64,000 nucleotides of DNA from an uncultured Latescibacterota bacterium (GTDB taxonomy: Bacteria; Latescibacterota; UBA2968). Numbering within the stretch: position 1 is the stretch's first letter; each line of letters opens with the position of its first letter. The position numbers were made by a program, and so were the translations under genes. The DNA is taken from NCBI GenBank assembly GCA_958295785.1, contig OY282377.1, positions 3,418,052 through 3,482,051 of the forward strand. Reading direction: 5' to 3'. This document shows positions 4,344 to 62,434 of the stretch, in pieces. The notes beneath the pieces were generated by a model. That model was given only the letters and a program-made list of their open reading frames with translations. It ran no database searches and was not told the origin of the DNA.

Positions 4344-4361
4344 ATCGACCTCTCAGTGGTC

Positions 4362-4506: not shown

Positions 4507-4582
4507 AATTCATAGGCGTTGATTCGCCTATGAATTGGCTTGAGAACCGGATAGTTGTACCCCGCGCCGTGTCGCCCTTGGA

Positions 4583-6119: not shown

Positions 6120-6717
6120 CTTAGAAAATCTTGGATATATTGTAGAATCTCAAATTTTACAAGCCGTCCATTTTGGAGTTCCACAAAAAAGAGAAAGACT
6201 TTTTGTCATTGCACATCGGGGAAATTGGCATTTTCCAAGAGGTAAGTTCTTTCATCCCGTTACTGCTGGGGAAGCACTGGCGGAACTCGCTTATAGTATT
6301 CCAGAGAACGCCAAATTTCTGACACCGAGCATGGACAAATACGTCGCAAATTACGAACGCGCATCTCAATGTATTCGCCCTCGAGATCTTCATCTCAACC
6401 AACCCGCAAGAACGATAACATGTCGAAATTTACATGGGGCTACGGGCGACATGATGCGTATTAAACTAAAAGATGGAAGACGCAGGCGGCTCAGTGTAAG
6501 AGAAAGTGCCCGATTGCAAAGTTTTCCCGACTGGTTTCAGTTTTGTGGGAGTGAAGGTAGCCAATTTAACCAAGTGGGCAATGCTGTACCGCCTTTGCTC
6601 GCAAAGGTATTGGCAATAGAAATTCAAAAGTGCTACGACGGCCCTGAACTTTCCCAAGATGATGTTAACCACGTCAAGCGAAAATACCCAAAATCCTCTC
6701 AACTCGAGATATTTTGA
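6120..6717 (+). pseudogene. 5'-truncated DNA (cytosine-5)-methyltransferase
   Basis: Frame contains AVHFGVPQKRERLF (motif VIII), RRLSVRESARLQSFPD (IX) and QVGNAVPP (X). Motifs I-VI are absent and replaced by the IS630 end. Confidence 0.85.
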
Positions 6718-7808: not shown

Positions 7809-8945
7809 CTATCTGTAGGGCAATGGCTTGGGGGCGAGCCATTCGACGATTCGGTCTTTAATCGCCCAAGCAAAAAAGAAATTCCCGCGCGGCGTGTGGT
7901 GGCCGATATAATACGGCGCCAAAAACGCCTGTACATCCCCCCGATACGTTGTGTATGCCTCCCGGAATGCCTCGCGCAAATCGATCACCGGCACATCCTT
8001 TGTCGCCAACCAATCCAAAAACGTCTGGTCAAAAAGGGGCTTGCCTTCCAATGCTTGGGCCATATTGCGCGCGCCAAACGACAAAATCACCAGCAACTTT
8101 TTTTCATTGGCCTTTGTAAATGCCTCGGCCTTTTCAATGACAAACCGAGTCGCAAACAAGGCCGCTTCGGTATGCAACCCGTAAACCTCGGCATCCGAGC
8201 CTGCGTTCTCGCGTTCTCCGCCCAGACTTCGCGCCATTGCCGCTACATCTTCCACACTGCCTTTGCGCGCCATCACTGCGTGCAAAATCGGATCGTTGCC
8301 AAACGTCTCCCACACCCAGTCCGTGTCGCACAGCCGATAGAGTTCTTCCGGCGTTTTGCAGAGGTTTTCGCGCTCTTCAACGCTGCCGCGTTCCAAGTTG
8401 ACGCGCAAATGCGGCAGTGTGAACCGCCCCTGTCTGCCCATGCGAATGGACCGCCACGCATCCAAATTGCGAAAGTGATCGTCGTCCCACACATTCAAAA
8501 TTACGTACTCGGCGGGGTGTTCCCGCTCCACGATCAACATGCGCCGATACGCCTGATACACGCTGTGCCCGCCAATGCCGTAATTGCGGACCGGCTCCAA
8601 CAGATGGGCGGCCAAATACTCCTGCCACGTCTCGCCATTGCTGACCTGATCGCAATGCGTAAAGCTGTTTCCATACGTGTGGATGCGGCAGGCGCGATCC
8701 GCATAATTGACCCCCTGCCGCGCACCGTCCTTTTGGTATGCGTAAAACCCGCGCGAACCATCCACGCCACCGCCGCGAAATCCGTCGCAAACCACCCATC
8801 CAATTTCGGGATCAAACGCCGACTTCGCATTGTTGCACATCGCCCTCGCCAACTCGCGTGGCACCTCCGCCTTCGCAGGCGTCACAAAGTGATCCACCAT
8901 CTCGCGCGTCGGCATAATCGACGCCAAATATTCGCGTCTCGTCAT
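7809..8945 (-). CDS. Hypothetical protein, SGNH/GDSL-like
   Basis: YGNSFT, NYGIGGHSVYQA and C-terminal GHHTPRGN motifs resemble SGNH blocks. Start overlaps the res stop. Confidence 0.55.
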   Translation of the reverse strand: MTRREYLASIMPTREMVDHFVTPAKAEVPRELARAMCNNAKSAFDPEIGWVVCDGFRGGGVDGSRGFYAYQKDGARQGVNYADRACRIHTYGNSFTHCDQVSNGETWQEYLAAHLLEPVRNYGIGGHSVYQAYRRMLIVEREHPAEYVILNVWDDDHFRNLDAWRSIRMGRQGRFTLPHLRVNLERGSVEERENLCKTPEELYRLCDTDWVWETFGNDPILHAVMARKGSVEDVAAMARSLGGERENAGSDAEVYGLHTEAALFATRFVIEKAEAFTKANEKKLLVILSFGARNMAQALEGKPLFDQTFLDWLATKDVPVIDLREAFREAYTTYRGDVQAFLAPYYIGHHTPRGNFFFAWAIKDRIVEWLAPKPLPYR

Positions 8946-34779: not shown

Positions 34780-35658
34780 ATGCAAGAACCCGAATTTACA
34801 CAACACCCCACTGAGGTATTTGGGCATTCCTTTGTTGACGATTCTCCCCTGGCACAAAGCAATCGACAAAACCAGTTTTGCCCATTTCTGGACAGCGAAT
34901 GCAAAAAGCCGAGAAAAAGTGAACCCCATATCAAAGTGGGCGTATGCACAGTCGGTTACAGAGGCAATTTTTTAAATAAAAGGAATCCCGTTATTGTTTG
35001 CCCGCATCGCCTCAAAGAAAAAATCGTCTATGAAACCATTGAAAAATTTTACTTCAATAATCTTTCCAGTAGCCACACCATAAAATGGACATCTGAAGTC
35101 TCTTGCGGGGTCGCGGGACATATTGACTTTGTTGCGGTAAAAATGAAACGCAACACAATAGAGGATTTCCTGTGCGTCGAATTTCAAGCCGCGGGCACGA
35201 CAGGGACTCCGTGGCAAGCAGTTGTCGATTTTAAGAAAACTGGCAAATTCTCCCAGAGAACCTACAAATATGGGATAAATTGGGCAAATGAATTTGCGAA
35301 AACAATGATGCAACAAGTGTACAAAAAGGGACTGGTCATGGAATATTGGGGAAAGAAAATCGTCTTTGTGCTTCAGGATGTTGGGCTTCATTACATCCAA
35401 TACGCCACGGATGCCAGTGATTTGCGCGAAGCGTCAGATGATGATTCGATTCATTTTTGTACATTCAAAACGGTTTGGAATAACGGGTTGAATACTTGGC
35501 GATTGGAATTTGACAAAAGAATGAGCACCAACACAGAAGGCATAAGAAAAATTCTAGGAGGTGCTCACAGAGAAACATTTTTGACTGTCGACGAGTTCAG
35601 AGACAATATTAATGCCAGACTTGCGTCAAATTTGGAGGGCGAGTTGGGTCTCGTTTAA
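34780..35658 (+). CDS. NotI-family restriction endonuclease with Fe-S-type Cys cluster
   Basis: CPF..ECKK...GVC...VCPHR Cys pattern, IDFV..VEFQ and GINW. Confidence 0.75.
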   Translation: MQEPEFTQHPTEVFGHSFVDDSPLAQSNRQNQFCPFLDSECKKPRKSEPHIKVGVCTVGYRGNFLNKRNPVIVCPHRLKEKIVYETIEKFYFNNLSSSHTIKWTSEVSCGVAGHIDFVAVKMKRNTIEDFLCVEFQAAGTTGTPWQAVVDFKKTGKFSQRTYKYGINWANEFAKTMMQQVYKKGLVMEYWGKKIVFVLQDVGLHYIQYATDASDLREASDDDSIHFCTFKTVWNNGLNTWRLEFDKRMSTNTEGIRKILGGAHRETFLTVDEFRDNINARLASNLEGELGLV

Positions 35659-36705
35659 TCTCTCCTGTGCAATTTCGAGATACTGATCACTCAACTCAAT
35701 TCCAAGTCCAGCCCGACCAAACTCGTTGGCCGTAACGATTGCACTACCTGTCCCCATAAAGGGATCCAACACAATGCCGCCGATTTTGCTCGTTGCCAAA
35801 ATGGGTATTTTTAGTAGCTCAGTGGGAAAAACAGCATAGTGTGCGTCTTTCCGCCATTGATCTTCGGGAACGATGTCCCAGATGTCTGATGGCAAAAATC
35901 CCTTCGCTTTACTCGTCAAAATAAAAAAGCCTTTTGTTTTCAATTCTTTTGCCCGCCCACTTACGCTTGCGTTATCGCTGTGGTAGGTGCGCTGTGTGCC
36001 TCGAATTGTCATCCGAAAATCGACCAACTCGCCATTTCGCATCTTTTCCAAGGTTTCATCGAGAGCCTTGAGCGCGTCATCGCGTTCCCTGTCGTTTAGA
36101 TTTTCCGATTCCAAAATTTGCTTTCTGTATTTTTTTCCGCTTACGCCCGTGGCAGAAATAGTCTGTTTGCCGTTAATTGTGGGGAACTTGATCGGCTTAA
36201 TCCGAATGCTGTCACCATCGTAGTAGTACTTTCTATTTTTGACAAAGTGGAATACATGCTCATACATATCTCTCAGTCTGTCCTTCGCGCTTTGCGTTCC
36301 CTTTCTTTGGTTCCAGATGACATCATTTCTCAAAATCCACCCGTCGTCCTGCATGGCCAATGCCACGCGCCAGGGCATGCCCATCAGGTTCTTATTGTGA
36401 TATTTATCTCCGAGGTTTAACCAAACCGAACCATCGTTTTTTAGTACTCGCTTGATCTTGTGAAAAATCGAAGTTAGTTTTTCCACGTATTCTCCAGGCT
36501 CTTTTTCTCTGCCGATCAACAGATCCAAATATTCCTCCTTGACGTGATACGCTCTCATCTTCCAATATGGAGGAGAAGTGACGACACAATCAATGCTTTC
36601 ATTGGGAATTTCGTCTAAAATTTCGCTGCAATTGCCCCGCAATAGAACAAAAGGTGCAATCCCATGAGTAAGTGCTTCGATCTGTTTTTTATAGAGAAAT
36701 GCCAA
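35626..36705 (-). CDS. Site-specific DNA amino-methyltransferase (N4C/N6A, beta class)
   Basis: VTSPPYW precedes HYAVFP and VLDPFMGTGS; AAGGAG RBS with TTG start; convergent with and overlapping the REase. Confidence 0.9.
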   Translation of the reverse strand: MAFLYKKQIEALTHGIAPFVLLRGNCSEILDEIPNESIDCVVTSPPYWKMRAYHVKEEYLDLLIGREKEPGEYVEKLTSIFHKIKRVLKNDGSVWLNLGDKYHNKNLMGMPWRVALAMQDDGWILRNDVIWNQRKGTQSAKDRLRDMYEHVFHFVKNRKYYYDGDSIRIKPIKFPTINGKQTISATGVSGKKYRKQILESENLNDRERDDALKALDETLEKMRNGELVDFRMTIRGTQRTYHSDNASVSGRAKELKTKGFFILTSKAKGFLPSDIWDIVPEDQWRKDAHYAVFPTELLKIPILATSKIGGIVLDPFMGTGSAIVTANEFGRAGLGIELSDQYLEIAQERLNETQLALQI

Positions 36706-48740: not shown

Positions 48741-49469
48741 TCAATATCGCCAATTTTCATGGGCGAGCGGCGCGCGATTGAGTTCGTCTCTGTATAAATG
48801 CCATTGGGGCATCAGGGCATCCATCAGCGCACGGAAACGCGCATTGTGGTGTCGTTCCAAGAAATGGACCATCTCGTGGACGAGAATGTACGCCAAGCAC
48901 GAGGGCGGCTTCTTGACCAGTTCGAGATTCAGCCAAACGCGCCCGGCACGCGCGTTGCAGGATCCCCAGCGGGTCTTCATCCTTTTGATACGCACGTCAT
49001 TGACAATCACGCCAACCCTCGCTTCCCACTTGGCGACGAGTGCGGGCAACGCGCCGCGGAGTTGGCCGCGATACCAGCCATACAGTACGGCCTCTCGCGT
49101 ATCTCGGTCGTTGCCCCGGCGAACGCGCAATTCCATGGTGGCGTTATTGGGCAAACGCACCGCCGGCGGGCCATTGTGTTCAATAATGTCGATCCGATAG
49201 CGTCGGCCCCAAAAATAATGGCTTTCGCCGGTTATGAACTCCCGTTGAGACTGGCGATCCTGTTGCGCGAACTCGGCCTGCTGCCGGCGAATCCACCCCA
49301 AGCGCGAAATGATGGCCAGGCGCACGGCGTCATCGTCGAGGCGCAGCGGCGAGGCCACCCGCACGCGACCGGTTGGCGGATAAACGCCCACATGCAAATT
49401 CTTAATGTCTTTGCGAACGATCTCCACAGAGATGCCACGCACATCGATATATCGCCGATCAGTAGTCAT
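48741..49469 (-). CDS. M48/YgjP (DUF45) zinc metallopeptidase typically downstream of hsdR
   Basis: MKTRWGSC and HEMVH..H (HExxH). Confidence 0.9.
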   Translation of the reverse strand: MTTDRRYIDVRGISVEIVRKDIKNLHVGVYPPTGRVRVASPLRLDDDAVRLAIISRLGWIRRQQAEFAQQDRQSQREFITGESHYFWGRRYRIDIIEHNGPPAVRLPNNATMELRVRRGNDRDTREAVLYGWYRGQLRGALPALVAKWEARVGVIVNDVRIKRMKTRWGSCNARAGRVWLNLELVKKPPSCLAYILVHEMVHFLERHHNARFRALMDALMPQWHLYRDELNRAPLAHENWRY

Positions 49470-52400
49470 CTCGCGCCTTTACAATCTTGAATATCGCCTT
49501 TGCGAGACACTCGTCTCCCCCGAGCTCCGACTTGATGGCTTTGCAGATGCGCCGTTCCTTGAACGTGTTTCCCCTCCAGTCCGCCATCATGGTGCCACGA
49601 ACCGCAATGTCGATAGCCAAGGCCGTTGTTTCGGCCGTACTGGCGGCGGTATCGGCGACCCGCTCTCGGCGCACGAGTTGGTCTAAGCCCTCGACGTCCT
49701 TCAAGTTGTCGTACAGGGCGCGATGGGCGCGGGTCCGCAGGGCAATCGGGTATGCCCCGTGCTCCGGCTGGCTCACCTGTTTCGCCAACGCGACGATCCG
49801 CGCCAGATAGGCTTTGTAATCTATGGCCGCCTGCTTGCGTTGACAGATCAGGGCGTCGAGCAAGGCCGACATTTTCTCGTAGTACTTTGGGTTGACGGCC
49901 GTCTCGTCGATGATGATTCGCCGCACATTGTTCTCGATAGTCTCGGCCATTGCTTCTCGATTCTCGCGAATGCCCGCGGGCAAGGACGCCAGCGCGTTCT
50001 CCCCGCGCTTGGCGATCAGTTGCACGAGCGTCTGATTGTCGAATGTGGAGATCTGCGCGGTCTCCTCGGCCCGGATGTACATGTCGAGCAAATCCCTCAT
50101 CGCCGGTTCGTACATCTTCAGGTCGATATAGTCGCCGCTGGCGAGCTTGACCTCTGCACGCACCTTTTCGCAGTGGGCCACCTCGTCTTTGATCGCCCGC
50201 GCCTCGGCGTCGGCATAGCCTGCCTCTCGCATCTCGTTGGCCAAATTGGCGTAGGCGCGCAGGAACGATCCGACGAGTTTGTAGAGCGTCACGCGCTTGC
50301 GCTCGTTGTCCTTGCGTTGCTCGCCACTTTCCGCAACGCAGAAGAAGCGCAGATAGGCCGCCGTATCGCGCGGGGGCGCGACCGGCTCGCACAGCGCCGC
50401 GATCTCCTCGCGGACTTCCTCGAGTCGCTCCCGCCCCTTTTGCAATCGATCCTCGAGCAATCCCCTGACGTCTTCCGCGTCATAGCCATCAAACGCCTCG
50501 CCGGTATAATCGCCGATAGCCTGCTCGAGCGACCGGAACAGATCCTTGTAGTCGATGACGTAGCCGTATTCCTTGTCTTCGCCATGCAGGCGGTTGACCC
50601 GGCAGATCGCTTGGAACAAGCCGTGGTCGCGCATTTGCTTGTCGATGTAGAGATAGGTCGCGGGCGGGGCGTCAAAGCCGGTCAGCAACTTATCCACCAC
50701 GATCAGGAGTTTCATCAGCCTCGGCTCTTCGACGAATCGCTTTTTCACCTCCCGCTCGAATTGCTCCACCCTGTACATCGCCGCGTCTTCCGACGCGTTG
50801 AAGTGCGCCGCGAGCATCTTCCGGTAGATGTCGTATTGGCGCAATTTCTCGGTGAGGCCCTCGCCGGACTCTTCGCCCTTGATGTCCGACACTGCCGGTT
50901 TGTAAGACGTAACGATGGCGCACTTGCCCGCCAAGTCGGTTTGCTGAAACAACTCGAAGAGGCGACAGGCCGAATAGATGCTGTTTGAGACGAGCAGGGC
51001 GTTGCCGCGACCGCTCTTGAGCCGATCTCGCGTTTCCATGTCGAACAGGATGTCGGCGACGATCTTCTCCAGTCGCCCCCGCGAACTCATCACCTTTTGC
51101 ATCGTGCCCCAGCGTTGCTTGAGTTGGGCCTTTGCGATATCGGTCAATCCTCGGGTCTTGCTCTCGAACCACTGATCGATCTTGGCCTGCGACGCGATGT
51201 TCTGATCGATGTCGCGCGCCTCGTAGCGCAGGTCGAGGACGACGCGATCATGCACGGCCTCGTCGTATTTGTAGGTGTGGATGTACGGCCCGAAGGTCTC
51301 GATGCTGCGCTGCTTGTCGTCCTTGAGCAACGGCGTCCCGGTGAAGCCGATCAGCGTCGCCGCAGGCAACAGTTCTTTCATCGCCGCGTGGAGCTTGCCC
51401 GACTGGGTGCGATGGCATTCATCCACAAAGACGAACAACTCGCCTTTGGCGCGAAATCCCGCCGGCAAATTGTTGCGAATTTCTTTGAGGAATGCGTCGA
51501 GGTCGCCATCTTCCGACGCGCCAAACTTGTGGATCAACGAGCAGATCAGCCATTCGTCGCCCACGTTGAGCACGCGCGCCAGATCGGCACCGCTCGTCGT
51601 GCGATAGATGTTCTCGCTGACGCCCTTGAAGACCCTTTCGATCTGCTCGTCCAGTTCAGTGCGGTCCGTGACGATCAGCACCCTGCCATCGGTTACGCGC
51701 TCGCGGATCCACTTTGCCAGCCAGACCATCGTCAGGCTTTTGCCGCTGCCTTGGGTGTGCCAGATGATGCCGCCCTCGCGATGCTGAACGCGCTGTTGTG
51801 CGGCCCACACCCCGAAATACTGATTGTGGCGGCAGGTCTTTTTGCCGCCTGAATCAAAGACCGTGAAGTCGTGCGCGATCTCCAGCAACCGCTCCTTGCT
51901 GCAAAGTTGACTCAGTTCCCGCAACAACGGGTTGTCGCCTGCGTCTAAGTGGGCGTCTGTTTCTTTCCAGCGCAGATAGTATTTCTCCTGTGTCTTGATC
52001 ACGCCATAGCGCAACCCTTCGGTTTCGTTGCCGGCCAGCACGAGTTGAACCGTGGTGTAGAACGGGCGGATGAATTCTTTTTTCTGGCTGTCGAGGTGTT
52101 GCCGAATGCCCTCGGCCACCGATACTGTGGACCGCTTCAACTCCAGCACGCCCAAGGCGATGCCGTTGACGTAGAGCACGAGGTCGGGCCGTCTGGCGTT
52201 CTCTCCGGCAATGGTAACCTCCTCGGCGATAGCAAAGGCGTTGTTGCCCGGGTTTGACCAGTCGATCAGATAGACGGTCTGGGTTTGCCCGCCGACGTTT
52301 GGACGCACCTTGACGCCGTATCGGAGCAGGCCATACACCTCGCGGTTGGCGTCGTAGAGCGTTTTGTTGATGCCGAGTGCCGCGTCCAATTTGTGCAATG

Positions 52401-52584
52401 CCTTGTCAATGGCTTTGTCGCCATGCCCTTGGCGCTTCAGCCAGTCGGTGAGCAACGCCTTCTCGACATTGGCGTTGTCGCGCCGACCCTTCCAGTTGCC
52501 GAGGTAGGCATAGCCGAGCGCGTCTTGAAAGAACGCGACCACGCGCCGTTGTGTAAAAATTTCTTTTTGACCAACTGTGCTCAT
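49459..52584 (-). CDS. hsdR: Type I restriction enzyme R subunit
   Basis: RPD.VLYVNG...ELK, WHTQGSGKS, DECHR, GFTGTP, LLTGFD and QAICRVNR. Confidence 0.95.
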   Translation of the reverse strand: MSTVGQKEIFTQRRVVAFFQDALGYAYLGNWKGRRDNANVEKALLTDWLKRQGHGDKAIDKALHKLDAALGINKTLYDANREVYGLLRYGVKVRPNVGGQTQTVYLIDWSNPGNNAFAIAEEVTIAGENARRPDLVLYVNGIALGVLELKRSTVSVAEGIRQHLDSQKKEFIRPFYTTVQLVLAGNETEGLRYGVIKTQEKYYLRWKETDAHLDAGDNPLLRELSQLCSKERLLEIAHDFTVFDSGGKKTCRHNQYFGVWAAQQRVQHREGGIIWHTQGSGKSLTMVWLAKWIRERVTDGRVLIVTDRTELDEQIERVFKGVSENIYRTTSGADLARVLNVGDEWLICSLIHKFGASEDGDLDAFLKEIRNNLPAGFRAKGELFVFVDECHRTQSGKLHAAMKELLPAATLIGFTGTPLLKDDKQRSIETFGPYIHTYKYDEAVHDRVVLDLRYEARDIDQNIASQAKIDQWFESKTRGLTDIAKAQLKQRWGTMQKVMSSRGRLEKIVADILFDMETRDRLKSGRGNALLVSNSIYSACRLFELFQQTDLAGKCAIVTSYKPAVSDIKGEESGEGLTEKLRQYDIYRKMLAAHFNASEDAAMYRVEQFEREVKKRFVEEPRLMKLLIVVDKLLTGFDAPPATYLYIDKQMRDHGLFQAICRVNRLHGEDKEYGYVIDYKDLFRSLEQAIGDYTGEAFDGYDAEDVRGLLEDRLQKGRERLEEVREEIAALCEPVAPPRDTAAYLRFFCVAESGEQRKDNERKRVTLYKLVGSFLRAYANLANEMREAGYADAEARAIKDEVAHCEKVRAEVKLASGDYIDLKMYEPAMRDLLDMYIRAEETAQISTFDNQTLVQLIAKRGENALASLPAGIRENREAMAETIENNVRRIIIDETAVNPKYYEKMSALLDALICQRKQAAIDYKAYLARIVALAKQVSQPEHGAYPIALRTRAHRALYDNLKDVEGLDQLVRRERVADTAASTAETTALAIDIAVRGTMMADWRGNTFKERRICKAIKSELGGDECLAKAIFKIVKARDDY

Positions 52585-54263
52585 TGCTCTGCCTTTCCCA
52601 TTTTCAAGGTCGCCAACGCGGCCTTTCCCCCGTCCGTCAGGCGGTACTTCTGCAAGGGGCTTCTCGGCTTGTCGGGGATTGTCTTTTCCAGTAATCCTTC
52701 ATGTAGGAGGCGTGCAAGCCGCTGTTCGAAAGTACGCGTTCGGCCAGAATAGCCCGCGGCGACTTGCAACTCCTTGCTCGTAGCCGGTGTTTCAATACAC
52801 GCTTGTAACATGGCTGAATCTCTAGGTTCCAATTCAGCTTGCACCCCTGCTTGCACCCTATCTTGACCTTCTTGCACCCCTGCTTGCACCCTATCTTGAC
52901 CTTCTTGCACCCCTGCTTGGCCCCTGCTTGGCCCATTGGCCCCTGCTTGGCCTCTATCTTGACCAGCTTGCCCTTCAGCTTGCCCCCCAACTTGCCCCCC
53001 ATCTTGCACCCTCGCATGTCCCGAATTCGGCTCCTCCATAACCCGCCCTGCGAGTGCCTTTCGCCGAATCGTTGTGACGAACCCATCGGTAACGGCAAAT
53101 TCAGGTTCTGATAAACCGGCCCCGACACAGCGGCGGATCATGTCCAGCGTTCCGGTTCCCATTCCTTCAATGTATTCGGCGAGATACAGAGACTCGGCCA
53201 GCAAGGGGTTGCCCGGTAAAGAATTGTGCGGCTCGCGTAGCTTTTCGAGGGTCAACGGGGGCGACAGCCTGCCGGGGTTGCGGACCTCTAAGCGGTCGGC
53301 GAACAGCATCACCTGTACGCTGCCGTTGCTCGTGTAGTCGCGGTGCGCCACCGCGTTGACAATGGCCTCGGTCACAACTTCCTTGGGCATCTCGTAGGTT
53401 ACGGGTGCGCGGACGCTCTCGGCACGGGTGCCGACGTGCAACGCGATCTTGCTCAACACGAAATCCACCGCGTGATCGACCAACTCGAACGCCGTGCCCT
53501 TATAGACTTGGTAGGACGGAATCGGCTTGGCGACCTCGGTTCCATGGAAGTGGGCGCATTTGACCTCGGAGGAGATCAAAAACCGCTGCGGCGATTTTCC
53601 GAACAACAACACCGCAGCATGGGTCAGCCGCCCGTCGTTCAGCAGGTTCAGATGGGCCAGCAACTCCTCGGGCGATGCTTCTTCGGCCAAGGGGAACTGC
53701 CGGACACTACGCGCTCGGCGAATGAACCAACGCATTCGCTCACTATCGAGATCGTCCAGTGTCGCTCTCGGGCAGGCAACCGCGTCGAATGGCCCCCTGC
53801 GGATCAATTCCGCGTTCTCCAGATACTCCACCAACGCGGCGTAGAGTTCGGTTTTCAGGTCTTCGGGGGTGTTGAACCGCTTTCGTATCAGCCCGGCTTG
53901 GGCCTTGCCGATCAGTGCCCGCATTTTGGGATGCCGGGCGCCGTCATCCGCCCCCTTGACGAAGATCAAGCGGTGGATGCCGAGGGCACTCGCATGGTCG
54001 AACTCCCGTTCTGTCGGCGCAACGCCGGCTTCATCCTCGCCGCCATAGCCCCAGCCGAACAATCCCACATAGACATCGCACCGCTCGACTTCGTCCAGAT
54101 AAAGCGCGTCGGGCCGTTGGTTAGAGGCCGGGGCGTCCTCGAACAGGAACACGTCGAAAAATCGCCGCAAAAGCGCATCGCCGCGAACATAGTCGCGCAA
54201 CGCCGCTCGCTCTTGGGCGAACTCGCTCTGTACGCTGCTGATGAATAGACGGAGGGGGGGCAT
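52581..54263 (-). CDS. DUF4062 domain + RecG-C/HATPase_c_4-like domain + C-terminal wHTH
   Basis: LFISSVQSEFAQER..PTEREF; EAIVNAVAHRDY..NPG..GTG; Q/G-rich linker with a 33-bp tandem repeat (52838-52918); PDKPRSPLQKYRLT. Confidence 0.8.
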   Translation of the reverse strand: MPPLRLFISSVQSEFAQERAALRDYVRGDALLRRFFDVFLFEDAPASNQRPDALYLDEVERCDVYVGLFGWGYGGEDEAGVAPTEREFDHASALGIHRLIFVKGADDGARHPKMRALIGKAQAGLIRKRFNTPEDLKTELYAALVEYLENAELIRRGPFDAVACPRATLDDLDSERMRWFIRRARSVRQFPLAEEASPEELLAHLNLLNDGRLTHAAVLLFGKSPQRFLISSEVKCAHFHGTEVAKPIPSYQVYKGTAFELVDHAVDFVLSKIALHVGTRAESVRAPVTYEMPKEVVTEAIVNAVAHRDYTSNGSVQVMLFADRLEVRNPGRLSPPLTLEKLREPHNSLPGNPLLAESLYLAEYIEGMGTGTLDMIRRCVGAGLSEPEFAVTDGFVTTIRRKALAGRVMEEPNSGHARVQDGGQVGGQAEGQAGQDRGQAGANGPSRGQAGVQEGQDRVQAGVQEGQDRVQAGVQAELEPRDSAMLQACIETPATSKELQVAAGYSGRTRTFEQRLARLLHEGLLEKTIPDKPRSPLQKYRLTDGGKAALATLKMGKAEQ

Positions 54264-54275
54264 GCTTTGAGCCTT

Positions 54276-55052
54276 TCATTCGGCAATGCTCTCTCGCAGA
54301 AATTGCGCGATTCTGTCTTGGTTCGCGGTTATGCTGGAAAACTGCTTTTCGCCTAAGTTGCTGAAGCGTGCCAGCACTTTTCGACTGATGGACTCCTGAT
54401 CCTCAAAAATGGCTAGGGAGCGGAACGGGATGCCCCACTTCTCGAACTGAAGTAGCGCAATCGTGGCATCGCGGGTCCTGCCGTCGCCCGTAAGGGCATG
54501 GACGAAAAGGGGTCGGGGCATACCATTGATTCGGCAATCCACCGTGTACATCTTTTGGGGGTCGCGTTTGGGATCGTTCCAGTCAAAAACCCTGCGCTTT
54601 TCCGGGATGACTTCACACAACAGTGCCCGAAAGTCATCCATGAAAGTGGATCGAACCCGTTCTCTCGACAGATACGACACGTCGGAGACCTTGAGAAGTG
54701 CTTGCACAAAAGAATACAGCGCGTCGCCGTAACGCCCGTCCGGCACATCGAGCAACAACTCTCCGTCTCGGTCCTCGACCTGAAACGTGGACAGCGCATT
54801 GGAGATGATCTTCTGACGTGTGCCGCTGTGAAGATCTCTCTCGTCAATGTCGTAGGTGAGGTGCATGTAGGTGTGCGCCTCGTCGGACAGCACCCATCGC
54901 ATCCCTTTCTTCTTCAAGACGATAGACAGGTGGTCGCCATCTTCAAACAGGAAGGGCGTGAACACGCGAAAGCGTTCCATTCCCTCGCCTGCGAGCCGAA
55001 TCTTTGCCGAAATTTTTTTGCGAAATTCTCGCTCTATGGTCTCGATAGACAT
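54276..55052 (-). CDS. DUF1828-like protein
   Basis: TPFLFEDGDHLSIV...LSDEAHT N-terminal pattern. Confidence 0.7.
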   Translation of the reverse strand: MSIETIEREFRKKISAKIRLAGEGMERFRVFTPFLFEDGDHLSIVLKKKGMRWVLSDEAHTYMHLTYDIDERDLHSGTRQKIISNALSTFQVEDRDGELLLDVPDGRYGDALYSFVQALLKVSDVSYLSRERVRSTFMDDFRALLCEVIPEKRRVFDWNDPKRDPQKMYTVDCRINGMPRPLFVHALTGDGRTRDATIALLQFEKWGIPFRSLAIFEDQESISRKVLARFSNLGEKQFSSITANQDRIAQFLRESIAE

Positions 55053-55055
55053 AAC

Positions 55056-55538
55056 CTACCACTCCTTAAAAAGATTGCCTTGCGATTCGGGCGGCACCTC
55101 AAAATTCGCGTCGTCAATCAGACAGTCAAGGGCACCGTTATAGTCGGCGTAGCGGTCAGTTGATTTAGCGTAGGTATCTTCCCGCGCTCCTCTTTGCTGA
55201 TACCGTTCCGTTGCAAAGTGTATGTGAAAATCATAGAACGTCTCATTTTCGATACGGTTGGTATGCTCGTGGCTCTTGCCATTGTAGCGGCGAAGGCGAA
55301 ATAGTTGGTTGGATTGGGGAACTTGAACAGCCAAGATGACGGAAAAGTCAAGTTGATTGATGCTGTTTTGCCTGAGAATGAGGCGAAATTCGTTCCCTGT
55401 CGCACCAACCAGATCTAGGTGTCTTTCCTTGTGGCCGCGCTTAGTTCTTAGAGATATCCGGTTGCGCCAGTCGGTCGGCAAAGGCTTGCGTTCCTGTAAC
55501 AACGACGCAATGTCTCGGTCTGAGTACGTAACTGCCAT
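55056..55538 (-). CDS. His-rich hypothetical protein (DUF6978-like)
   Basis: LRRYNG..HEHTN...FHIH; stop 3 bp from the DUF1828-like start. Confidence 0.65.
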   Translation of the reverse strand: MAVTYSDRDIASLLQERKPLPTDWRNRISLRTKRGHKERHLDLVGATGNEFRLILRQNSINQLDFSVILAVQVPQSNQLFRLRRYNGKSHEHTNRIENETFYDFHIHFATERYQQRGAREDTYAKSTDRYADYNGALDCLIDDANFEVPPESQGNLFKEW

Positions 55539-55541
55539 GGG

Positions 55542-56810
55542 TTACTCCGATTTGACCAGCCGAATCCGTCCCGTGAGAAGTTGTTGCATCATCCCCTGCT
55601 TGACAGCGCGGGTCTTATCTCGGCGTCGCTCCAGCGCGGCGATCTCGGCGTCCATGTCGGAGAGGATGGCGGCGATGGCGGCCTGCTCATTTTCGTCGCT
55701 AGGAACACGGAGACGGAACTGTTCTACTTGTTCCGAGTTCGCTGCAGTAAATGTACTACCCTGCTCGAGAATCTGCCAACGCCCCTCGGCATGGACCAGA
55801 GCATGGAATAGAAACGCACAGTCCCCGACCGGCTTCAATCCACAAACTCCACGTCCAAGACATGCTTCCTTTTTCGCAATCGCAATAGTTCCGACAGGAG
55901 CCCGAACCGTAAGAATCAGGTCGTCCGCATCACAGTGCTTGCTTGCCTGTGTTGTCCACACGCGGTCAATCGTCTTTCTGTCCTCAATGTCTGCATTTCC
56001 TTGAATCAATGGAAGACCCAAGCCTCGTAGGTTGTAGAACTTAGAAGGCGGTGATTGTCCCATAGTAAGAGCCGCAAGATCAACGAGCGGCTTCTCAGCC
56101 CACGCCCCACTGAACCCCGGCAGGCGCGTCTTGCCGGTGAGAAGTTGCTGCATGGCGGCCTGCTTAATGGCCTGCTTCTTGGCGATCAGTGCCTCCAATG
56201 ACCGGAGCAGGCCGTCCACATCCGACAACGCCTCGGCGATGGCGCGTTGTTCTCTGATAGGCGGCAGTGGTATGCAAACATCCCTAAGTGCTCGCTTCGA
56301 TATGCCAAAGACTTTTAGACCGGTGGCAAGCCGACGCAACTGCATCTTCACGGGTGCTTTTTCGAGAAGATAGCCGCGATAGCCGTCACGAGTTTTCTTG
56401 TTCTTTGCCCTCAAAAGGAGCGTGTGCAGTCCTGAAACTGCTTCAGTCGCTCCAAGATTGCGAACTTCCACGCTTTTTCCGACACCGGCCTCGTCTTCGG
56501 AAGCATCCGCGACAATTAGATCGCCATCACGAAGGCGAGTAGCTGTGACACTTTTGTTAGCCAAAAGATGCGGCACTTCGTCACGAAAAAAATCTATGAA
56601 GTGATGAAAGCGGGTATGAATGTCACCGTAATGCACATACAACACAGTGCCAGTATGGCCTAGGTCGGCTCTTGAATTGGAGGCGGTATGCAGATAGTCG
56701 AAAAGCTCGCCAATGGAAAACACAGACCAATCATTGGGGATTACGCCTACTGTTGTCTGTTTGTAGCCCACTGGCGGCCTTTGCTGAACAGAAAATTCTT
56801 TCATTTTCAT
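55542..56810 (-). CDS. hsdS: Type I R-M specificity subunit
   Basis: GVIPNDW; two TRDs; repeated EQ.AIA..LSD.D...KQ..MQQLLTG conserved regions. Confidence 0.93.
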   Translation of the reverse strand: MKMKEFSVQQRPPVGYKQTTVGVIPNDWSVFSIGELFDYLHTASNSRADLGHTGTVLYVHYGDIHTRFHHFIDFFRDEVPHLLANKSVTATRLRDGDLIVADASEDEAGVGKSVEVRNLGATEAVSGLHTLLLRAKNKKTRDGYRGYLLEKAPVKMQLRRLATGLKVFGISKRALRDVCIPLPPIREQRAIAEALSDVDGLLRSLEALIAKKQAIKQAAMQQLLTGKTRLPGFSGAWAEKPLVDLAALTMGQSPPSKFYNLRGLGLPLIQGNADIEDRKTIDRVWTTQASKHCDADDLILTVRAPVGTIAIAKKEACLGRGVCGLKPVGDCAFLFHALVHAEGRWQILEQGSTFTAANSEQVEQFRLRVPSDENEQAAIAAILSDMDAEIAALERRRDKTRAVKQGMMQQLLTGRIRLVKSE

Positions 56811-56833
56811 GTCACCCCATCTTCTCTAAGTGC
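56811..56833 (-). repeat. hsdM 3'-end repeat, short copy 3, abutting the hsdS start
   Basis: GTCACCCCATCTTCTCTAAGTG versus GTCACCCCCATCTTCTCCAAGTG at 58060. Confidence 0.7.
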
Positions 56834-56891
56834 CGGTATATCACATTTATAGCTTCCAGCAGATTGATACCGCGTCCACTTTCACCCAGTA

Positions 56892-57113
56892 TCAATCTCT
56901 TTCCCGCGACGCGCTGACGGCATCCAGAATGTCCCCCGTGGTGGCCCGTGTGTTGACACCCGGTACGTCAAACGGCGATTCGGTTGCACTTTCCTTGGCC
57001 TTGACAGAAAAAACGCTCCCGTCTTTAGTGCGAATTTCCACTTCTTCTTTCTGTGCAAGAGTGAGCAGACGGGCCAGATTTTGGCGTGCTTCCAAATAGG
57101 TAAATGTCTTCAT
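56892..57113 (-). CDS. Phd/YefM-like antitoxin
   Basis: MKTFTYLEARQNLARLL...EVEIRTKDG. Confidence 0.8.
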   Translation of the reverse strand: MKTFTYLEARQNLARLLTLAQKEEVEIRTKDGSVFSVKAKESATESPFDVPGVNTRATTGDILDAVSASRERD

Positions 57114-57119
57114 GGGCGA

Positions 57120-57509
57120 TCACTCCACTATGTTAATCCCCAAATCACGAGCGATTTGTTTCATTCTTTTGTCAAGTGACATGAGGGGTTGGGCCAAGGA
57201 TTTGGCACAGATCAGAAAATACGCATCGTAGGCGTAAATGTTGTGTTCAATAGCCAACTCGAGTGCCTTTTGGATGTCGATGCTGACCAGCCTGACCGGA
57301 ATTAGGTTTGCGGCCTTTTCAGCAACCAAGGCTTCGGCCTTGGAAATTTGTCTGCGCTTGATCATCGCGGAGAGCGCGTTGCCAATTTCATAAGGCAATA
57401 TTTCTGGAGCAATCAACACAGCATCCGATGTGACTTCTATGATGTGTGCTCTTTCCGGCTCGTTCAATACGACCGCGAGGAAGATGTTTGTGTCAGCGAC
57501 CAAATTCAT
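57120..57509 (-). CDS. vapC: PIN-domain (VapC) toxin
   Basis: VADTN, YEIGNA, YDAYFL and SLDK. Confidence 0.9.
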   Translation of the reverse strand: MNLVADTNIFLAVVLNEPERAHIIEVTSDAVLIAPEILPYEIGNALSAMIKRRQISKAEALVAEKAANLIPVRLVSIDIQKALELAIEHNIYAYDAYFLICAKSLAQPLMSLDKRMKQIARDLGINIVE

Positions 57510-57561
57510 ATAAATATACGATCAAAAAGTGGCATAAATAAGACCGGATACAGACGCCAAG

Positions 57562-57616
57562 CTCACAGCGTCACCCCCCATTTTCTCCAAGTGTCCCGCG
57601 ACCTTGTCGCCAAACG
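57562..57616 (-). repeat. hsdM 3'-end repeat, copy 2
   Basis: ~55-bp near-identical copy of 58052-58105. Confidence 0.9.
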
Positions 57617-57619
57617 CCG

Positions 57620-58056
57620 GTCAGTACACTTGGGCGGCAGTTTCACGATGGATTCAACAGACAGCGTCTGCACAATTCCCGACATTTCCGGATCTGCTAG
57701 CTGGGGGGCGGAGGCTCCCTGATGTTACTCAATGTCTCTTCTTGAGGGGCCGTCATCAATTTTGCAGACACCGTCTGCAAAATCTCCGAGTAGCACCTAT
57801 AGAACTTGCACGATAACGCCAAGCTCCGGCTGGAGCAACCTCGTATCGCCAGTTTGGCCGCCAGTCTTTTGATCAGTGCCACGCCATATTCCGCCCTATC
57901 CGCGCCATGCTGTTCATACTCGACGATATACCAGCCGAACAGCCAGTTCCGCACAACGAGTGAGCGATCAATAGCGCGTACCGCCGAGTGTCGTGTTTCC
58001 TCGTGGGTTCGCCGACACAACTCCACGAGATCCTCGAAATCGAATGCTTGACTCAC
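57620..58056 (-). pseudogene. Truncated YhcG/DUF1016 (N-terminal part only)
   Basis: RNWLFGWYIVEYEQHGADRAEYG and ILQTVSAKL; GTG start overlaps the hsdM stop; no nuclease domain. Confidence 0.8.
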
Positions 58057-60472
58057 AGCGTCACCCCCATCTTCTCCAAGTGTCCCGCGACCTTCTCGCC
58101 AAACGTTGCCACCTCTTGCTCCAACGCCGGCAGCGTTTGCGCGTATCGCTCCTCCAATTCCTTCACCCGCCCGGCGAGTTGTTGCGTCAGCCGCTGCACC
58201 TCGCTGTCGATCATGTCCTGGATATTGGCGAACCATTTGTCCTCGATGACCAGCGTCTTGATCTCGTCCTGAGAGAGCGCGGCATAGTGTGCCAACACCT
58301 GCGCGTCCAACTCGGCTTGGGCGTCCCTCACGGCCTTGTCGGATTTGGACTTGGCTTGGAAAAGGGCGAGGCAGTGCTTGAGGGCGGCATGTTCTCGGTC
58401 GCCCTCTAACTCGTCCCGCATGGCCTTGAGCCGGTTGACCACGCCGATTTTGGTGACCGTCCCTTTGTCATTGGCGGCGTCTTCTAACAGACCGCCCTCG
58501 CCGATGTGTTCTTCGATAAATTCCTCCAACGCGCGAGCGGCGTCCTCCTGCTCCATCCGCAACCCCTCGAGGGCGACCTGTTCAGCGGCGAAGTAGCGCG
58601 TCGCGATCAACGCCGGCGGAATCAGATCCATCTTGTACTTCCCGCGCTTGATGGTCAAGTCCGGCGTTTCCTTGATCTTCTTTGCCTTATCCTCGATGAT
58701 CCCGCGAGGCTTGGCCGCCTCGACCCAGCCATCCGCCGCGATGAGATACACATCGTCCTGCATCGTCTCATCCCAATAATTTATCAGACATTGGTACACG
58801 TCGTAGCGGTTGAGCAAGGGGAGATCGGCGAAGCGCGTCAGCAGATCCTCGGACAATTCGTCGATGACCGCCGCGGGACGGGCATTGACCCCAAGTGCCC
58901 AAAGGCGCGGCTCGTGGGCCTCGCGCCAAGCCGTGAAAACAGCCGCAACGCGCGCGCGATAGAACGCGATAGAACTCGAACTCCTCGTGACCGAGAATGA
59001 CGGCCTTCACCCGTGCGGTCTCGACGCGGGCCTCGCTGTAGCCCGCGCAACGCGGGGAAGACCGCCCAGTAATCGCGCAGGGCGTCGAGATCGCGGTCGG
59101 GAATGCCGCCGTTCAAATGCGCGTGGAGATCGTGCCAATCCTCTAACTCGCTGGCGTCGATGTAGCGCGGGATGTTCAAGTTGTAGTCGTTGGCCGGGCT
59201 GGCGACCTCGGCGGCGGACACTATGCGCGCATAGCCCGGCTCCTCGACCTGCCGGTTAAACACATCCACAATCCGGTGAATGTCCTGCGCCCGCAGGCGA
59301 TTCTTGTTGCCATCCTTGAGAAAGCCCCGGCTCGCGTCGATCATAAAAATGCCTTTGCGGGCGTGGGCGTGTTCTTTGTCGATGACCAAAATGCACGCGG
59401 GAATGCCCGTGCCGTAGAACAGATTGGCCGGTAGGCCGATGATGCCCTTGATGAACCCTTGCCCGATGAGATTTTTGCGAATCTCCGCCTCCTTGTTGCC
59501 GCGAAACAACACCCCGTGCGGCAGGATGATCGCCCCCTTGCCCCGGCGCTTGAGCGACTTGACGAGGTGCAGCAGGAAGGCGTAGTCGCCGTTCTTGGCC
59601 GGTGGGATGCCGTACTCAAACCGCCCAAATTCGTCATTTGCCGGATCGAATCCATTGGCCCATGCCTTGGTCGAAAATGGCGGATTGGCGATGGCGAAGT
59701 CAAAGGTCTTGAGGCCGTTGTCCGAGTTCTTGTAATAGGGCGCGGCCAGCGTGTTGCCGCGCCACAACTCGGCGGTCTCGTGCCCGTGCAAGATCATGTT
59801 CATCTGCGCCAAGGCCCAAGTGGCATTGTCCATCTCCTGCCCGTAGATGCTGAGGCCGCGCGGCGCGAGGTCCGCGGCTTTGAGCAACAGGGAGCCGGAA
59901 CCGCACGCGAGGTCGTAAATGGTCTCGTCTTGGCGGGTGTGCGGGCCGATGCCGATCACCTGCGCCATAACGCGCGAGACCTCGGCCGGCGTGTAGAACT
60001 GCCCTTTGGCCTTGCCGGATTCGGTGGCAAAGTGCCGCATCAGGTACTCGTAGGCGTCGCCCAACAGGTCGTCGCCCTCGGCGCGGTTGGCGCGAAAGTC
60101 GAGGCCCTCAAAGATGGCGACCAACTTGGAGAGGCGGTCTTGCATCTCTTTGCCCGCGCCGAGTTTGCTCTCGTCGTTGAAATCGGCCTGATCGATGACG
60201 CCCTTGAGGTCGTTGGCCTCGGCGAGGTGGCCGATGATCTTGTTGATCCGGTCGCCGATCTCCTTGTCGCCCTTGAGCGCGGCCATGTCGGCAAAGCCGC
60301 CGCCAGTGGGCACTTCGATGAGCGAGTCCGGCTTGTCGGCTTTGTCCGAGACGTACTTCATAAACAACAAGGTCAGCACATAGTCCTTGTACTGAGAGGC
60401 GTCCATGCCGCCGCGCAACTCGTCGCAACTTTGCCACAGCGATGCGTAGATTTGGGATTTCTTCAGTGCCAT
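58053..60472 (-). pseudogene. hsdM: Long-form type I HsdM, split after the catalytic domain
   Basis: LWQSCDELRGGMD, GQFYTP, ACGSGSLL, NPPF and YNLNIPRY are intact. The frame breaks near 59043 and at a 10-bp tandem duplication (58956-58975); the C-terminal part is ORF 58053-58856. Confidence 0.85.
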
Positions 60473-60484
60473 TCGCGTCTCACT

Positions 60485-62434
60485 TTATTTTAGCACAAAG
60501 TTAATGTCATCTGCCCATGGATCGATCCGCGTCAGGCGTGCGCTTATGCGATCGCCGGCGCGAACAGGCGATAGCAGGCGCACGTCAATTTGCAGGGCGT
60601 AGTCCAAGACCTCAACCCGAGCGCGTTGATCCCAAACATCTAAAACGAGCCCGTCAAACACTTGTCCTTTGTGTCGTGAGAGATGGTGAAAAATCCAATA
60701 GCGTTCGCGCCGGCGTTCCAAGTTGCCGATCAGGCGGAGCCGCTCTTCGATTTCGGGACACAGTGCGGTCAATGCTTCAAAAGAATAGGGCGGGGCCTCG
60801 TTGCCAATGATCGCGACGAGTTGCCGCTGTGAGACCAGATCGATAAATCGCCGCAGGGGGGAGGTGATCTGGCAATAGGGTTCTACGCCCAACCCGCCGT
60901 GTAAGCCCGGTTTTAATGAAAGGGCCGCAGCGCGCATGCGCGTCAAGACCCGATAGCGGTGCAACAACTCGTTATCCGTGGGTGCTAAATCGGAGAGGTC
61001 AGGCGCGTCTTGGATGCGAAAAATCGCCGGGACATTTTGATCGGCACACAATTTTGCGGCCTCGACATTGGCCTTGATCATCAACTCGCTGACCAGCACA
61101 TCGGCCCTGGAATCGCGCGTTTTGACCGCGATATCCACGCTGCTATCGGGCAAAACCTTCACGCGGCGGGCAACTTGATCAACCGCTATGGCCCCTGATT
61201 CCACGCGCTGGATCAAAAGCGATTCTGCCGCGTCAAACAGGGCGGACAACATCGCGTGCCGCGGGTGTGCCACATCGTCGAGAATCGCGTCTGCATCCTC
61301 ATAACTCAACTTCTCGCAACACCGGATCGCGGAAAGCGTCCATGTTGGGGATTTGACGACGCCATCGCGCCCCACATCCCACAACAGGCTGACGGCCAAC
61401 CGATTTTCATTCGGCAACAGACTGCCCAAATTTCCCGACACCTCCGGCGGCAACATCGGAAAGGTCTTCTCCGGCAAGTACAGACTTGCCCCGCGGCTTC
61501 GGGCGGCTTCGTCCAAGGCAGAACGCGCGGGGATCAGCGCGGCAACATCGGTAATATGCACACCCACTTGAAAGCTGCCATCTTCCCGAAAGCGCGCCGA
61601 TACCGCATCGTCCATATCGGTTGTCGAGGCATCGTCGATGGTCACGGCATCCAAATATGTGAGGTCCGTGCGGCGTGCCAAAAGCGATTCGAGTTGAAGC
61701 GCGCCCGCTTCTTTGATCACCACATCGGGAAAATTGAGATCGAAGTCTTCGCGCATCAACTCGACAAATGCGTGCTGATCCCACACGCCTTCGGCGACGA
61801 TGCGCTCATAAGCCCGCCGCGCAGAGATCGGTTCGCCAGCCATGCGTTCAAGCGTGCGCGCGTACTTGCTCTGTGCGCCGTACAGGGCCACATCCCTCAC
61901 GCGATCAATCCACTCGACCTCTGCACATCCGCCCCGATTGTGAAACCACTTCAAAAACCTCTCGCGCTCGGCCTCTCGCTCTTCGGCGCGGGCAACCATT
62001 TCCAACCTGAGGTCCGCCTCTGCCCGATCAACGGCGCGAAACCCTCGGTCTTCGGCATCGAAATAAACACTTGTTTCCAAAGCGATCAAAAATGCCGACA
62101 TGTGTGCCGATGCGGGCGCGTGGTTGTAATACAATTCGGCCAATTCACTCAAGTGCCAGACCTCATCTTCCTCTGCGACCAGTTCCCAAATTTCACAGAG
62201 GTCGATATCCGCACTCGCGGCCTCGGCGCGAGTGAACCACGCCATGCCGGCGGATTTATCCCGTCCGATATGTCCAGTCGTTTGCAGGATGTTCTCGATG
62301 GGCACATTGAGCGATGTCCGCGCCGATACCGCAAATCTGGCTCGGGTATGCGAGACATTGACACACACGCCCGCTGTCAGTCGATTTCGATAGCGGAACA
62401 AGACAATTTCGTTTTCTTTTGGCACTGTGTTCAT
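60485..62434 (-). CDS. Ribonuclease II/R (RNB domain) exoribonuclease
   Basis: TIDDASTTDMDDA, VHITDV, ELMIKAN and HGGLGVEPYCQITSPLRRFIDL. Confidence 0.9.
   Translation of the reverse strand: MNTVPKENEIVLFRYRNRLTAGVCVNVSHTRARFAVSARTSLNVPIENILQTTGHIGRDKSAGMAWFTRAEAASADIDLCEIWELVAEEDEVWHLSELAELYYNHAPASAHMSAFLIALETSVYFDAEDRGFRAVDRAEADLRLEMVARAEEREAERERFLKWFHNRGGCAEVEWIDRVRDVALYGAQSKYARTLERMAGEPISARRAYERIVAEGVWDQHAFVELMREDFDLNFPDVVIKEAGALQLESLLARRTDLTYLDAVTIDDASTTDMDDAVSARFREDGSFQVGVHITDVAALIPARSALDEAARSRGASLYLPEKTFPMLPPEVSGNLGSLLPNENRLAVSLLWDVGRDGVVKSPTWTLSAIRCCEKLSYEDADAILDDVAHPRHAMLSALFDAAESLLIQRVESGAIAVDQVARRVKVLPDSSVDIAVKTRDSRADVLVSELMIKANVEAAKLCADQNVPAIFRIQDAPDLSDLAPTDNELLHRYRVLTRMRAAALSLKPGLHGGLGVEPYCQITSPLRRFIDLVSQRQLVAIIGNEAPPYSFEALTALCPEIEERLRLIGNLERRRERYWIFHHLSRHKGQVFDGLVLDVWDQRARVEVLDYALQIDVRLLSPVRAGDRISARLTRIDPWADDINFVLK

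Follow-up and report, generated by a model that had tools for sequence, protein, structure and literature searches.

Copies of the hsdM 3′ end bound embedded cassettes between hsdM and hsdS in a type I restriction-modification operon

The window, a 64,000-nucleotide (nt) stretch of contig OY282377.1 from an uncultured Latescibacterota bacterium, contains a type I restriction-modification (R-M) operon in which the 3′ end of hsdM occurs three times. We number these hsdM tails in the order in which the operon is read: copy 1 is the true end of hsdM, copy 2 lies between two cargo cassettes, and copy 3 abuts the start codon of hsdS. The threefold repetition, proposed in a first-pass annotation of the sequence, was borne out by repeat search and alignment. 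So was its account of the cargo, which by Pfam domain calls is a truncated yhcG between copies 1 and 2 and a PIN-domain toxin with a weakly Phd-like partner between copies 2 and 3. All tail copies and cassettes read on the minus strand (Table 1). We consider it probable that the copies are junction scars of recombinational insertion, kept as ribosome sites and reused as short homology for the exchange of modules. The window would then hold two modules between hsdM and hsdS, one made of a tail and yhcG (now truncated) and the other of a tail and the PIN toxin/antitoxin pair.

The repeat search of the window returned three families at these sites. D1 pairs 57575-57616 with 58064-58105 (42 nt, 95% identity), D11 pairs 57562-57578 with 58052-58068 (17 nt, 100%), and D3 is an 18-nt element present three times, at 56815-56832, 57576-57593, and 58065-58082 (89-100%). 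Copies 1 and 2 agree at 52 of 57 aligned positions, copy 2 having an additional G, and copy 3 keeps 18 of 19 core bases, followed by TGAC and then the hsdS ATG at 56810. When the whole 5,660,449-base genome was searched with the degenerate 18-mer CACTTRGAGAARATGGGG, exactly the three window sites were found; two mismatches admitted two further sites, and a reversed control pattern gave none. Copy 1 overlaps the start of the yhcG remnant as a GTGA stop/start, and copy 3 ends 3 nt short of the hsdS ATG; copy 2 adjoins no start codon and sits 52 nt upstream of the vapC (PIN toxin) ATG. The earlier suggestion that the repeat couples the next gene thus suits the positions of copies 1 and 3 and not that of copy 2. 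Judging from its position, copy 3 is likely the ribosome-binding region of hsdS. No sigma-70-like promoter was predicted in 56600-58300, which fits, if weakly, with read-through along the operon, and the three terminator-like hits in the same interval all fall within vapC.

A reason for duplicating this particular segment emerged from loci that carry no cargo. In these, hsdS begins at an ATG embedded in the final codons of hsdM, as in ...ATGGGGGCGGTATGGAAGTGA, followed by the conserved HsdS start PGYKQTE; in another example, ...AAGATGGGGGCGGTATGGAAGTGA, the HsdS frame MEVKPGYKQTE... begins from the inner ATG. Such an overlap was found in many of the 39 related loci that have a direct hsdM-hsdS junction and a single tail (none of them is otherwise isogenic with the window, and the hsd island lies elsewhere in the chromosomes of the relatives). 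Because hsdS starts inside the hsdM tail, the tail holds the HsdM C terminus together with the ribosome site and the start of the next gene; because it serves both genes, an insertion that spares both must leave a tail on both sides. Insertion would proceed through recombination, general or illegitimate, with DNA of other hsd loci. The anchor would be the long hsdM body, the second joint would fall in or near the tail, and the resulting pattern would be an "insertion with long target duplication." In naturally transformable bacteria, homology-facilitated illegitimate recombination combines a long homologous anchor with a joint at little or no homology. It would yield the arrangement "donor hsdM tail + cargo + partial recipient tail," and we infer it as a possible route for these organisms. 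Selection would retain recombinants that keep a tail ahead of the downstream gene. The tail copies would then be short direct repeats common to loci, and cargo would travel as "tail + cargo" modules that could be stacked, swapped, or lost through homologous crossover in the tails, possibly to the present day. As the first-pass annotation had pointed out, a crossover between copies 1 and 3 formally yields a direct hsdM-hsdS junction, with HsdM ending in ...HLEKMG*.

We surveyed related loci in the same phylum at the DNA level in 40 relatives and at the protein level in 168 genomes, which located the hsdM family in 35 genomes. Thirty-seven stretches were fetched and 36 were oriented on the hsdM end; L033, which had no hsdM-end match, was left out, and L034 and L035 were without the region. 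The 36 hsdM tails (69 nt) served as plus-strand queries, with the true tail masked and reversed queries as decoys. Extra tail-like segments in the 36 loci numbered 24 at 30 bits or more (0 for decoys) and 28 at 28 bits or more (1 for decoys). One extra copy lies downstream of hsdM in eight loci (L019, L021, L022, L024, L058, L059, L062, and L063), two in the window and in L065, L067, L068, and L071, and three in L064. The hsdM-hsdS interval is a mosaic whose content varies widely among related loci, the variation that the first-pass annotation had named as a check on its cassette idea. Besides full-length YhcG (DUF1016_N plus YhcG_C; PADLOC PDC-S02), the interval cargo includes a 417-residue SLFN_AlbA_2/HATPase_c_4 gene, a 281-residue gene without a family, a ThsB-like TIR gene, a pentapeptide-repeat gene, small helix-turn-helix genes, and other PIN toxin pairs. 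The RNase II gene that flanks the window's hsdM stands beside hsdM in 0 of the 35 other genome loci, so the loci were compared as a family and not site by site.

The same footprint was found outside this phylum-level set. Metagenomes scanned with an HsdM C-terminal alignment (A2) gave 80 loci; the hsdM stop could be placed in 77, and 58 had at least 1,500 nt downstream. Most of these 58 are cargo-free. Three unrelated metagenome loci carry tail copies of 52-72 nt and 96-97% identity directly before hsdS: 72 nt and 97% identical in L107, 52 nt in L112, and 56 nt in L140, the last 96% identical to the locus's own hsdM tail. A strong copy also directly precedes hsdS in L143 and L104. In L140, a YhcG-like insert takes its start codon from the left copy, where that codon had formerly served hsdS. 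Copy 3 of the window recurs in L036, a locus described below, and homologous remnants precede hsdS in L019, L021, L022, L104, L107, L112, L140, and L143. The pooled set came to 94 loci, 86 of them with a usable match to the hsdS N terminus. From the hsdM stop to the conserved HsdS GYK motif, 39 loci have <200 nt and 47 have at least 200 nt. An extra tail copy of at least 30 bits lies between hsdM and hsdS in 18 of these 47 cargo-bearing loci (reversed decoys, 0 of 47), and within 150 nt of hsdS in 11. The tail footprint is frequent, not universal; in loci without it, old copies may have decayed, or cargo may have arrived by other routes. Chance, or convergence on a ribosome-site motif, would suit copy 3, which is short, G-rich, and Shine-Dalgarno-like. 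With the 18-mer alone at three sites in 5.66 Mb, no decoy at 30 bits or more, and copies of up to 72 nt at 97% identity in other loci, we give this explanation practically no weight.

A close relative of the window's array allowed one crossover to be placed. L036, which is the same DNA as L064, comes from a genome of the same class and a different family. In this locus, hsdM is followed by an AlbA_2-like gene; a tail and yhcG pieces; a tail, vapC, and antitoxin; and a tail and hsdS. L036 thus has one more cassette (a fourth) and one more tail than the window, and the shared array is 92-97% identical. Its yhcG retains the first 49 codons and the last ∼95 around an internal deletion; since the yhcG deletions differ between the two loci, both descend from an array with a full yhcG. 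Overall, hsdM is 77% identical between the two, and the tail before yhcG matches at 34 of 48 positions (71%). The following 147 nt of yhcG match at 143 of 147 (97%), and the segment from tail 2 to the hsdS start matches at 758 of 820 (92%). The hsdS conserved segments are 98% (154 nt, central) and 90% (136 nt) identical, whereas the specificity parts, which carry target recognition, are unrelated. At the L036 junction, the sequence is of the AlbA_2 tail type up to ...ATTTCGC and window-like from GTGAGTC on, a switch that places a crossover in the last bases of the tail. Copy 2 is present in L036 without 11 nt. The array is also recognizable in L037, from a metagenome-assembled genome assigned to another phylum, where hsdM is followed by ∼20 nt of the yhcG start, a PIN fragment, a degenerate tail (the counterpart of copy 2) with the same leader as in the window, TGTATCCGGT, the vapC-antitoxin pair, and hsdS.

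We also compared the window over 55400-60600 with read data from four runs of one sample (X7-X10), kept as contigs. All four runs contain the window stretch (share of sampled words 0.76-0.94), and contigs confirm its sequence; record 21 of X8, for example, equals 58057-59257 with 0 differences. No joint between two tails appeared in the contigs of the four runs, which drop rare variants and are therefore uninformative on this point either way. A joint like that of L036 is present (57599->57910, X8), and another candidate, 57043->58057 (X8, depth 2, single contig), was too weak and was not used. The earlier proposal of recombination at the hsdM terminus accordingly stands in part: the drop in identity within the tail and the L036 array speak for it, and for the excision that it envisaged neither joint nor circle was seen in contigs, from which rare variants are dropped. 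Separately, all four runs have a loose end at 56874, where a contig comprises hsdS, copy 3, and ∼40 nt and then 255 letters unlike the window; another strain in the sample has different DNA upstream of copy 3 and hsdS.

These data also bear on whether the tails take any part in exchange. They could be passive scars that are kept as ribosome sites, with crossovers confined to the hsdM body and the conserved hsdS segments. Exchange over long homology does occur, as the conserved hsdS segments beside differing recognition parts indicate; the tails are short (19-72 nt), and the contigs hold no joint between tails. However, identity between the window and L036 falls from 97% to 71% exactly at the tail/yhcG boundary, and stacked arrays with a tail between modules are what unequal pairing of tails would be expected to give. 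We therefore regard a purely passive role as unlikely and favor insertion scars that are reused as short homology.

Tails and cargo were found to move as units. In 12 of 14 loci (exceptions, L123 and L016), the start of yhcG follows either a tail copy or the true end of hsdM, and where yhcG is internal to an array (L062, L064, and L071), it has its own tail copy in three of three. Among close AlbA_2-like homologs, the 3′ end abuts a tail copy in 10 of 14 loci (exceptions, L073, L028, L016, and L070), and in L018 and L004 an AlbA_2 remnant with its tail lies upstream of a complete hsdM. Tail variants differ between modules: the yhcG tail reads ...MGISL* with an ATGA or GTGA overlap, and the AlbA_2-like tail reads ...MGLGAVR* with ATGA. 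In all three hsd-embedded instances (window, L036, and L037), the vapC module comes with a tail copy and one shared leader; outside hsd loci, inspection by eye of the 15 instances for which upstream sequence was shown revealed no tail before vapC. Stacked arrays with a tail between every module occur in L036/L064, L065, L067, L068, and L071. The boundaries differ among the AlbA_2-like, vapC, and 281-residue modules, which points to several separate duplication-forming events and not to one. The first-pass annotation had named a single tandem duplication followed by deletion as an outcome that would undo its proposal; in this reading, the hsdM end was doubled once in this lineage, and the DNA separating the copies was later altered by insertion and deletion. 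The similarity of copies 1 and 2 (52 of 57), closer than that of copy 1 to the equivalent L036 tail, is what such an event would leave. It is nonetheless contradicted by tails that flank unrelated cargo in at least 17 other loci and by tail variants that track the type of cargo, and copy 2 with its vapC leader, being common to L036 and (in degenerate form) L037, predates this genome. We find a single duplication scarcely credible.

The layout resembles that of an integron, with a one-way cassette array, one repeat per cassette, expression from the context of the upstream gene, and cassette content that differs between loci. An integron-like system in which the tails are attachment sites for site-specific insertion and excision of cassettes is nevertheless very unlikely. 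Integrons use an IntI-type recombinase and attC-type palindromic sites. Here neither was found: in the 26 large open reading frames (ORFs) scanned in 34.8-64 kb of the window, Pfam detected no family of integrases, transposases, or other recombinases, in agreement with the first-pass annotation, and the ORFs listed for related loci are defense-type cargo. The repeats are direct coding copies of a host gene with length and end points that vary by locus (19-72 nt), and the contigs hold no excision joints. A hairpin in the window (56861-56898) follows one cassette alone; the recurrent element is the direct coding copy. The label "integron-like" given earlier thus describes the layout and not the mechanism. 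Pneumococcal ivr/tvr-type loci have inverted repeats in several hsdS genes, usually a recombinase, and changes of specificity, and a toxin-antitoxin pair may occur in them. They are alike in undergoing repeat-mediated rearrangement within a type I R-M locus, whereas the window has one hsdS, direct copies of the hsdM end, no long inverted repeats between hsdS parts, and no recombinase found.

Several observations weigh against insertion scars that are reused for exchange. Twenty-nine of the 47 cargo-bearing loci have no tail copy of at least 30 bits. The loci are kin and were partly spread by transfer, and the 18 with a copy are not independent events; the shared boundaries of the AlbA_2 module may go back to one ancestral insertion that later spread. 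Copy 2, not being beside a start codon, has no obvious role in expression. Copy 3, at <30 nt, is short for a RecA-type crossover, and it is from position that we infer its role as a ribosome site.

Accessory genes inside R-M operons are well documented, as with PrrC embedded in the type I operon EcoprrI (PMC12707154) and TgvAB embedded in a type I operon of Vibrio cholerae VPI-2 (PMC11411939). Payne et al. 2024 (bioRxiv 10.1101/2024.01.29.577857) report 17,432 nonredundant genes embedded in BREX, DISARM, and type I systems. The window cargo consists of same-strand genes between core hsd genes and is, in their sense, a set of embedded cassettes ("guilt by embedding"). Two of its members fall in candidate defense families (PDC-S02 for the yhcG remnant and PDC-M24B for the DUF1828 gene), the vapC pair has no PADLOC match, and the ThsB-like TIR and SLFN_AlbA_2 genes of related loci are known or candidate defense genes, in line with what is reported for embedded genes. 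In the sections drawn on here, these papers describe which genes embed and not how, whereas the window shows cassettes bounded by copies of the upstream gene's end. The main text of Payne et al. 2024 uses the word "recombination" 0 times and leaves the significance of embedding "to be explored."

The second precedent is insertion with long target duplication. Furuta, Abe and Kobayashi 2010 (PMC2853133) described, for R-M types I-IV, insertions with 30- to 400-bp target duplications and no mobility gene. The cases are alike in having inserts flanked by direct duplications of tens to hundreds of base pairs, of variable length, with no mobility gene. Copies 1 and 2 (57 nt) and those of L107, L112, and L140 (52-72 nt) exceed 30 bp, copy 3 is ∼23 nt, and among the large ORFs in 34.8-64 kb no mobility gene lies in or beside the insert. 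As far as that account goes, a whole R-M complex was inserted into ordinary chromosome in those cases, whereas here the R-M operon is the target and other defense cargo was inserted; moreover, one and the same overlapping gene junction is targeted every time here, and arrays grow through repeated events. Embedding and long target duplication are each known. Their union, in which cassettes are bounded by end copies of the upstream core gene, was not found in the literature searched, and we found no paper, outside subscription journals, on tail duplications at embedded cassettes.

A wider proposal is possible, although we would sooner doubt than assert it. The overlapping hsdM/hsdS junction may be a general docking site for defense genes, with tails as portable homology arms through which ordinary recombination captures, stacks, and sheds modules. 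This would happen in different families and phyla and often enough to matter within populations. If so, the docking site would be a recombinase-free counterpart of the integron and would explain how defense genes become embedded in immune operons. A location within type I R-M, BREX, DISARM, or Hma operons now serves as a guide to new immune systems; thousands of defense genes lie in such operons, and the route of their arrival is left open in the main text of Payne et al. 2024. Apart from the wider proposal, the tail duplications offer a simple reason for insertions at gene overlaps, namely that the overlap must double for both neighbors to survive, and they lead to the prediction that tails act as homology arms in cassette exchange. 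They are also a readable footprint of insertion events, one that could delimit cassettes precisely and date and trace transfers, such as that of the array that is 92-97% identical between two families within surrounding hsd genes of ∼75%.

The type I set of the window is recognizable in full, with HsdM (HsdM_N, E 8e-17; N6_Mtase, E 4e-100), a two-domain HsdS, and an HsdR with nuclease and SF2 motor. Not all three genes are intact, as hsdM is broken. Relative to four relatives, the window hsdM lacks 29 nt at ∼59043 and has a 10-nt tandem duplication, GTTCTATCGC, at ∼58955. Contigs from X9 and X10 have 29 additional bases behind 59043, and an X10 contig has 10 bases fewer at 58955; the intact allele is thus present in X9 and X10 contigs and the window allele in X8. 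As read from these contigs, hsdM is frame-broken in this genome with an intact allele alongside it in the sample, and methylase-on and methylase-off forms would coexist. The yhcG remnant has a GTG start at 58056 that overlaps the hsdM stop; its frame is open to 57697 (DUF1016_N match over 57697-58056, E 6e-13; no YhcG_C), and out-of-frame remains continue until copy 2.

The PIN toxin is 95% identical in amino acids to that of L036 and 84% to that of L037, both lying between hsdM and hsdS. Scanning species genomes with the PIN protein gave 22 loci, of which these two have the hsdM-hsdS placement; when the 5-kb locus was compared as DNA with 40 relatives, nothing matched the vapC-antitoxin segment, and the protein-based scan alone recovered the module. 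The gene for the 73-residue putative antitoxin is next to the PIN gene in 20 of the 22 fetched loci (tblastn), always on its 3′ side. Its Phd/YefM score is 19.4 bits against a Pfam cut-off of 29.8. A VapBC pair would have an antitoxin of known family upstream of the toxin; here, the small gene lies downstream with a match below cut-off. Instances outside hsd loci (L038-L054) mostly have a conserved motif, TTGTACAATTGTC, ∼20 nt upstream of the PIN gene, probably an operator or promoter of the pair. The motif is lost in the hsd-embedded copies of the window and L036, a loss consistent with expression from the operon. The hairpin could mark the transcript end of the toxin module or act as a stabilizing element for it; L036 retains the structure with one compensatory T:A to C:G change, and L037 lacks it.

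Table 1. Features of the type I R-M locus in the window (aa, amino acids)
Feature	Position	Strand	Description
hsdR	49459..52584	-	1041 aa; Pfam HSDR_N, SWI2_SNF2, T1R_D3-like
Cargo between hsdS and hsdR	52581..54263	-	560 aa; Pfam DUF4062, HATPase_c_4, Fic-like_C
Cargo, DUF1828 protein	54276..55052	-	258 aa; Pfam DUF1828; PADLOC candidate PDC-M24B, E 1e-19
Cargo, 160-aa protein	55056..55538	-	Weak Pfam DUF6978 match, E 7e-6, below cut-off
hsdS	55542..56810	-	422 aa; Pfam Methylase_S, two stretches
hsdM-tail copy 3	56811..56833	-	CACTTAGAGAAGATGGGG + TGAC, abuts hsdS ATG
Hairpin, spans antitoxin stop codon	56861..56898	-	Inverted repeat I19; fold -23.3 kcal/mol, z -4.46
Putative antitoxin	56892..57113	-	73 aa; weak Phd/YefM match, E 9e-4
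PIN-domain toxin, VapC-like	57120..57509	-	129 aa; Pfam PIN (PF01850) E 4e-10, above cut-off
hsdM-tail copy 2	57562..57618	-	57 nt, one extra G, terminates at hsdM-type stop codon
yhcG remnant	57619..58056	-	Pfam DUF1016_N; PADLOC PDC-S02
hsdM-tail copy 1, true hsdM 3′ end	58052..58108	-	...FGEKVAGHLEKMGVTL*
hsdM, frame-broken	58053..60472	-	Two ORFs; HsdM_N and N6_Mtase on first ORF

Further cargo lies on the hsdS/hsdR side of the operon. The 160-residue gene begins 4 nt past the hsdS stop, and the stop codon of the 560-residue DUF4062 gene, whose product has partial PADLOC matches to pAgo-associated models, overlaps the hsdR start. In L017 (oriented), hsdS C-terminal fragments of 47 and 39 codons (8550-8690 and 9967-10080) flank a DUF6978-DUF1828 pair, and in L016 (oriented), a short ORF at 6195-6410 is a fusion of the first ∼20 codons of a DUF4062 gene with an hsdS C-terminal fragment. 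Scars of the same kind may thus exist on this side; hsdS-tail repeats as a general rule were dropped, clear hsdS 3′-end fragments in L016 and L017 alone being too few. Within the cargo interval of L062 (oriented), a 309-residue ORF at 3673-4602 fuses PIN_3 to the HATPase_c_4 C-terminal part of an AlbA_2-like gene, apparently another recombination product. The conserved central and C-terminal parts of the window's hsdS have short counterparts, 98% and 91% identical, elsewhere in the same genome (G000:C1:1863351-1864087), which suggests a second hsdS that could exchange specificity domains with the first.

The genes flanking the operon are ordinary (RNase II, a peroxiredoxin fragment, sulfatases, and a dehydrogenase), and the gene 3′ of hsdR encodes a YgjP-like metallopeptidase. 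At 34780-36705 of the window, a NotI-like restriction endonuclease gene and an N6_N4_Mtase gene are divergent with overlapping 5′ ends; this arrangement suggests a type II R-M pair at a distance of 13 kb from the type I operon.

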